DNA of 64,000 nucleotides from Escherichia coli (GTDB lineage Bacteria; Pseudomonadota; Gammaproteobacteria; Enterobacterales; Enterobacteriaceae): the NCBI RefSeq assembly GCF_001677475.2, contig NZ_CP015229.1. The stretch is one strand, 5' to 3'. The translations under genes were made by a program, and so were the position numbers. This document shows, one piece after another, positions 22,009 through 22,565 of the stretch. The first letter of the stretch is position 1, and every line of letters starts with the position of its first letter. The notes beneath the pieces were generated by a model that saw only the letters and a list, made by a program, of their open reading frames with translations, made no database searches and had not been told where the DNA came from.

Positions 22009-22565
22009 TTAGAGATAGGTAATCTGGAAGGTGGTATTAGCTTCAAAACCACCCAGGTCCGGCGCGTCAGTCGCACCTACCAGCCAGGCTTTAAAGTTTG
22101 CTTCGGTTTGCCTTTGGAGGTTGCAGTATCTTTTACGATCTGCTGATTAATGCCAGCGCCACTTTTGTAAGAGGTTCCTTGTTGATCACCAATCGCCAGG
22201 CTCACGTTGTTAAACGCCGCACCGGTATCAGTATTAAAAATGGTGTAATAGTTGCCGCTATTCGCCGTAGACACAGTACCGGTGAAGGTAGTGGTCATGG
22301 TAGTTTGGGTATCAAACACGCAGTCCTGCAAACGAATCTGGAAATCTTTCGGCGTGGTAGTGCCGTTGTTTTTCAGTTTATCTGCACCGATATTACCCAT
22401 ATCCACTTCCAGTTTGTGATCGTCTGGTACGATTGAGCAAACTGAATCTTCAATGGTGCCGTAAAAACGGGCAGTACCGTTGTTACCTTCTGCGAAAGAA
22501 GATGTTGAAGTGAACGCACCCATTACCATTGCTGCTGCAATAGCTGTTTTTACAAACTTACTCAT
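22009..22565 (-). pseudogene. yfcV: major fimbrial subunit gene with a frameshift near the 3' end
   Basis: ORF frame ends ...KGKPKQTLKPGW* at 22077, but a different frame continues ...NFKAWLVGATDAPDLGGFEANTTFQITYL* to a stop at 22009-22011, a canonical fimbrial-subunit C-terminal strand. Confidence 0.6.

Follow-up and report, generated by a model that had tools for sequence, protein, structure and literature searches.

A recent 7-bp deletion, probably inactivating, in the fimbrial major-subunit gene yfcV of an Escherichia ruysiae-type genome

The stretch of DNA analysed here, 64,000 nucleotides of contig NZ_CP015229.1 (assembly GCF_001677475.2, filed under Escherichia coli) and referred to below as the window, carries yfcV, the major-subunit gene of the Yfc (Stf-like) chaperone-usher fimbria, in a form whose reading frame is broken close to the 3′ end. 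This form is very likely a recent natural loss-of-function allele in a genome of the Escherichia ruysiae type. The comparisons below directly show that the deletion exists, that it lies in a repeat, that other assemblies carry it as well, that it is recent and how much of the domain it removes. The event is an ordinary slipped-strand pseudogenisation of a cryptic fimbrial gene, a kind of event that is already known.

The open reading frame (ORF) that begins with the signal peptide has 162 codons (22077–22565, minus strand), starts with MSKFVKTAIAAAMVMGAFTSTSSFA and ends with KGKPKQTLKPGW, that is ...KQTLKPGW, at a premature TAG at 22077–22079. The signal peptide, as read from the sequence only, is MSKF...SSFA followed by E. 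A second frame, from 22110 down to 22009 on the minus strand, gives NFKAWLVGATDAPDLGGFEANTTFQITYL and a stop at 22009–22011 and encodes the normal C-terminus of YfcV, NFKAWLVG...FQITYL. A terminator-like hairpin begins seven bases past this second stop. A preliminary description of the window had reported both stops and the hairpin, and all of them are found in the sequence; its estimate that the frame is broken about 25 codons before the C-terminus has to be corrected to 29 codons (N159–L187). Joined together, the upstream and downstream frames give, residue for residue, an intact protein of 187 amino acids (P0003) that occurs on 205 contigs. Alignment with the K-12-lineage yfcV (187 aa, ...KQTLNFKAWLVG...) and with a second E. 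coli allele leaves a single clean gap of 7 bp in the window. The K-12 reading QTLNFKAWLVG, which the preliminary description had quoted, agrees with the translation of the K-12-lineage gene, and a sequence longer by 7 bp does restore one frame of 187 codons, as it had anticipated, with a product identical to P0003. The shift had been placed within 22090–22100. A leftover repeat tract, AAACTTTAAA, sits there at 22090–22099, where intact relatives have AAACTTTAAACTTTAAA; a loss or a gain within a short direct repeat had been proposed, and comparison with these relatives identifies the loss of one unit.

In intact alleles of the same clade the site reads CAA ACT TTA AAC TTT AAA GCC (CAAACTTTAAACTTTAAAG), which contains a 17-bp tract of perfect period 7, AAACTTT AAACTTT AAA. 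The repeat has 2.43 units in the intact alleles against 1.43 in the window. CAAACTTTAAACTTTAAAG is present in all 18 intact same-clade loci and in three of three metagenome contigs (21 alleles), and the window is exactly one unit shorter. The 18 loci (L004–L013 and L015–L022) are those of E. ruysiae, or cryptic clades III–IV; ten of them encode P0003 and eight encode P0004. Among five species-representative contigs that matched the search pattern, the perfect repeat occurs only in the representative of this clade (CP089930.1). E. albertii, E. whittamii, Pseudocitrobacter vendiensis and K-12-type sequences have CAG ACT CTG (G/A)A(A/C) TT(T/C) AAA at the site. The slippage-prone perfect repeat therefore arose in this lineage through three synonymous changes (CAG to CAA, CTG to TTA). 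Judged from these alleles, the lineage's synonymous codon changes made a hotspot for deletion at this point of a gene which in E. coli is stable. No other period-7 tract of at least 17 bp exists within the 64-kb window, and the coincidence of deletion and repeat is therefore unlikely to be due to chance.

The proposed course of events has several steps. The codon choices CAA ACT TTA, in place of the CAG ACT CTG of E. coli, created the perfect repeat, and one of its units was then lost, most likely by replication slippage. The resulting shift of −7 ends translation after residue 158 and four foreign residues. The last 29 residues are thereby removed, and with them the last two β-strands of the pilin, including the C-terminal strand with the penultimate tyrosine of the donor-strand groove. 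The truncated subunit would fail in chaperone binding and in polymerisation, and the strain would make no Yfc fibre despite intact genes for the usher, the chaperone and the minor subunits.

The exact truncated product of 162 amino acids is found on 13 public contigs, which come from both NCBI and Logan assemblies. Locus L003 (GCA_018682815.1) carries the same deletion and differs from the window over 8,489 bp by one single-nucleotide polymorphism (SNP), at 24949, and is therefore a sequence separate from the window. Locus L014, which lies on a different strain background, is also deleted. These observations bear on the possibility that the missing unit is a sequencing or assembly artefact, one of three explanations offered in the preliminary description, in which case the true genome would have two units and an intact yfcV. 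A single error would suffice for this, because the nearest intact genome, L006 (GCA_019141475.1), is only one SNP (at 21707) and the 7 bp away from the window. However, such an error would have to coincide with the identical product of the 13 contigs, with the distinct L003 and with L014. In addition, the clean loss of a 7-bp unit within a 17-bp tract is untypical of short-read or homopolymer errors, and the tract is below the usual k-mer length of assembly. An artefact is thus extremely improbable, and a natural inactivating lesion is the favoured one of the three explanations.

The window, L003, L006 and L009, the last of which is intact and has 10 SNPs relative to the window, cluster tightly in a neighbour-joining tree. 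By these comparisons the deletion is real, is evidently very recent, since the intact L006 differs by one SNP and the 7 bp only, and arose inside a near-clonal group. The orthologs (the 18 same-clade loci, the three metagenome contigs and the E. coli alleles) have a single frame and are 7 bp longer, as is expected when the window allele is a frameshifted pseudogene. Full-length genes for the usher, the chaperone and three minor subunits fit a recent event as well.

Alternatively, the 7-bp repeat could be a slipped-strand ON/OFF switch that turns Yfc fimbriae on and off reversibly. Fimbrial genes are frequently phase-variable, and here a tandem repeat has changed by one unit. Moreover, the same 1-copy allele occurs on a second background, that of L014, which differs from the window at 96 of 4,072 positions. 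On the other hand, the ON state would have 2.4 units and the OFF state a single unit, and reversion would need a de novo duplication. When engineered products (1-copy on eight other backgrounds, 3-copy on two) were compared for exact identity with about 15 billion proteins, one of the eight 1-copy products was found, P0031, on a single Logan contig (SRR28159048, which is L014), and neither of the two 3-copy products was present. A clade-specific DNA pattern allowing one to four units matched three metagenome contigs, all of which have two units, so that no 3-copy expansion allele is among them. The tally of contigs is about 380 intact against about 14 deleted alleles.

L014 was at first taken for an independent slippage event; this was dropped once SNP mapping had placed its junction in a tract of the window haplotype. 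The yfcV of L014 (L014:17-505) is a mosaic, in which the L015–L022 type makes up the 5′ part and the window type the stretch between −2 and +218 bp relative to the junction, with private SNPs on either side of that stretch, at −17 and +219. Import by recombination would explain the L014 deletion as well as recurrence would, and on these sequences an independent event is not claimable. From this mosaic, E. ruysiae strains seem to undergo homologous recombination inside yfcV. The locus thus has neither the repeat length of a contingency locus nor a copy-number polymorphism that goes both ways and is phylogenetically scattered. Phase variation, which the preliminary description had also raised, finds no support here and is very improbable. 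Its ON state has two units and its OFF state one, expansions are lacking, and deleted contigs (about 14) are far fewer than intact ones (about 380); the locus behaves like a mild hotspot of one-way mutation, not like a contingency switch.

The consequence of the deletion can be read from the pilin fold. The Pfam domain PF00419 (Fimbrial) spans residues 34–186 of the restored protein (E = 2.5e-16), while the truncated product covers the StfA profile NF011811 only to position 155 of 186. Residues C43 and C82 are invariant in seven orthologs; the Fimbrial domain, the signal peptide and the cysteine pair are all present. The segments F160–G166, D172–G174 and T180–L187 are invariant across the seven orthologs as well, down to 67% identity. 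The alignment with solved chains of FimF and FimA extends through residue 186, and in it TLNFKAWLV and TTFQITY match TLNFYARLM and ATFTLEY of FimF. Strands are predicted at 155–166 and 177–185 by an AlphaFold model of low confidence (mean predicted local distance difference test score, pLDDT, 58; alignment of 7 sequences), which was used solely for placing secondary structure. Y186 and G174 (the latter about 14 residues before the C-terminus) have their codons in the −1 frame alone, and the allele lacks a complete in-frame C-terminal strand. In chaperone-usher pilins, the C-terminal strand with its penultimate tyrosine lines the groove that accepts the donor strand of the chaperone and then the N-terminal extension of the next subunit, and pilins without this strand escape chaperone capture and are degraded. 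The yfcV allele is accordingly predicted to be null for fibre formation. The conserved operon context, an usher and a chaperone gene at the fadJ-sixA locus, is in place.

A leaky allele is another reading of the same junction. The deletion forms the heptamer U_UUA_AAG (22095–22089) in the upstream frame, where the junction reads ACU UUA AAG CCU GGC UGG UAG, and the −1 frame of the heptamer is the stranded C-terminal frame, open to 22009. Frameshifting on it would yield a pilin of 185 amino acids (...KQTLKAWLVG...) that lacks N159 and F160. Read in the upstream frame, the heptamer conforms to X_XXY_YYZ, a shift of −1 leads precisely to the frame needed, and motifs of the type Y_YY.A_AA.R are shift-prone in E. 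coli according to Sharma et al. (PMC4066793). In the same paper, however, these motifs are efficient only with stimulators, and heptamers without stimulators yield 2–10 times a background of about 0.055%, i.e. at most about 0.5%. Possible stimulators near the heptamer are a hairpin that starts 7 nt downstream and a weak AAGG about 16 nt upstream. The downstream fold is not significant (z = −1.7 against shuffles), and the downstream sequence is also present in intact alleles and was therefore not selected for frameshifting. Furthermore, no allele but the deleted one has an in-frame heptamer that leads to the C-terminal frame, its relatives being single-frame, and the product would be without F160, which is invariant across orthologs. 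Leaky expression by this route is highly unlikely. It is equally doubtful that the allele is a low-expression hypomorph instead of a null, with an accidental 'saviour' frameshift site used by some ribosomes. Transcriptional slippage was considered separately and rejected, as there is no long homopolymer (TTTAAA only).

Some points weigh against the interpretation of the allele as a recent natural loss of function. For this one assembly, the allele is backed by its agreement with other assemblies and not by reads, and some of the 13 carrier contigs may share a read set or a clone of origin. The loss of function follows from homology and from general chaperone-usher biology, and the structure model behind the strand placement is of the low confidence given above. 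The slippery heptamer at the junction could give trace read-through to the C-terminal frame.

The gene order fadI-fadJ-sixA-(AT-rich spacer)-yfcV-usher-chaperone-minor subunits is the same as at the E. coli yfc locus (Table 1). The name yfcV given in the preliminary description holds in the sense of an ortholog identified by synteny (fadJ-sixA-yfcV-usher-chaperone); the allele, which had been set beside that of K-12, is of the E. ruysiae type and not that of E. coli. The yfcV of the window is about 82% identical to that of K-12 in nucleotide sequence, and the restored protein is 90% identical to K-12 YfcV, while the neighbouring fadJ, fadI and sixA are about 93% identical to those of E. coli. 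Close relatives of the window's yfcV are absent among 5,426 complete E. coli genomes, a collection used for the K-12-type comparison only, in which the best yfcV identity is about 83%. The protein cluster at 90% identity that holds the truncated product contains proteins of 187 amino acids with the source names Escherichia ruysiae, Escherichia sp. TW14182 and other Escherichia sp. The related loci split into groups at about 96.6% and at no less than 97% identity. The species description of E. ruysiae gives an average nucleotide identity (ANI) of 92.8% to E. coli and of 96.1–96.8% between its clades III and IV. Because both the identity of about 93% in fadJ, fadI and sixA and the split into groups match these published values, the window probably belongs to E. 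ruysiae (cryptic clade III/IV), an assignment drawn from local identity and not from genome-wide ANI.

Table 1. Features at the yfc locus of the window.
Feature	Position	Strand	Evidence
yfcV 5′ frame: signal peptide and pilin residues 1–158, then 4 out-of-frame residues KPGW	22077..22565	-	ORF translation
Stranded yfcV 3′ part, −1 frame, NFKAWLVGATDAPDLGGFEANTTFQITYL and stop; last two β-strands including penultimate Tyr	22009..22098	-	identical to P0003 residues 159–187
Deletion junction: leftover AAACTTTAAA tract, one unit lost relative to AAACTTTAAACTTTAAA of intact relatives (7-bp unit x2.43)	22090..22099	-	
U_UUA_AAG heptamer in upstream frame, formed at junction; formal −1 slippery motif, incidental	22089..22095	-	sequence; motif rules PMC4066793
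Intrinsic terminator-like hairpin between yfcV and usher gene	21974..22001	-	12-bp stem, 7 GC pairs, 4-nt loop, T-run
Usher gene (yfcU position), full length	19290..21938	-	NF011812 profile 1–881/881, 1817 bits (cut-off 972)
Periplasmic chaperone gene (yfcS position), full length	18518..19270	-	StfD profile 11–249/250
Three minor subunit genes (yfcR, yfcQ, yfcP positions; 171, 162, 179 aa)	16966..18502	-	each reaches family profile end
AT-rich spacer between yfcV and sixA, upstream of yfcV; presumed regulatory	22566..23236	.	GC 0.28–0.33

The spacer between yfcV and sixA (22566–23236) is presumed to be the regulatory region. Its low GC content stands against about 0.5 in the flanks and is typical of silenced fimbrial promoter regions. 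At the position of yfcO, the last gene of the operon, an ORF of 293 amino acids (16098–16979, minus strand) has no NCBIfam match at E ≤ 1e-5, unlike the other operon genes. In the same-clade relative L004 (GCA_012374395.1), where yfcV is intact, the usher at L004:4635-7283 is split into ORFs of 152 and 597 amino acids and is not called as a gene, which makes it an independent yfc lesion. K-12-type yfcV sequence occurs on a very small contig of low coverage (L025, NZ_VIRG01000022.1, 428 bp, coverage 0.75) in the assembly of an alphaproteobacterium, Stappia sp. BW2, and is almost certainly E. coli contamination. Pseudocitrobacter vendiensis CPO20170097T (L027:14047-14085) has a YfcV ortholog very close to the divergent allele of the E. 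coli 2017-02-2CC type (186 aa), which suggests that genera share alleles of the yfc locus or exchange it horizontally.

The finding matters little beyond annotation, where the proper label for the gene is frameshifted yfcV pseudogene. Virulence-gene typing, which uses yfcV as a marker of uropathogenic E. coli, should not count the strain as Yfc-positive. The near-isogenic genomes GCA_019141475.1 (intact) and GCA_018682815.1 (deleted) form a natural pair for the function of the Yfc fimbria in E. ruysiae.

The closest known system is yfcV of E. coli K-12, the major-subunit gene of the cryptic Yfc fimbria, which shares the locus order and the 90% identity to the restored product. The best NCBIfam match of the window protein, which also has the Pfam Fimbrial domain, is StfA of Salmonella. 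K-12 yfcV differs in being intact with an imperfect CAGACTCTGAACTTTAAAG at the repeat site, whereas the window allele is frameshifted and without residues 159–187. The usher shows the reverse: in K-12 (E. coli BW25113, L001:3681-6326) yfcU is a pseudogene with an internal stop next to an intact yfcV, while the usher of the window is full length. Slipped-strand contingency loci, for example in surface genes of Haemophilus or Neisseria, have multi-copy repeats. The window resembles them in that a change of one unit shifts the frame of a surface-structure gene, but differs in having two units only in the intact state, no expansion alleles and little or no homoplasy. In E. coli, Yfc fimbriae are core-associated and 'functional but cryptic', and disrupted chaperone-usher operons are common (Wurpel et al. 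2013, PMC3559732). As in such disrupted operons, a small lesion in the window truncates a structural gene of a core-associated cryptic operon while the locus is retained. In that survey, yfc was intact in all E. coli genomes examined, whereas the lesion described here lies in a non-coli Escherichia, at a repeat specific to its lineage.
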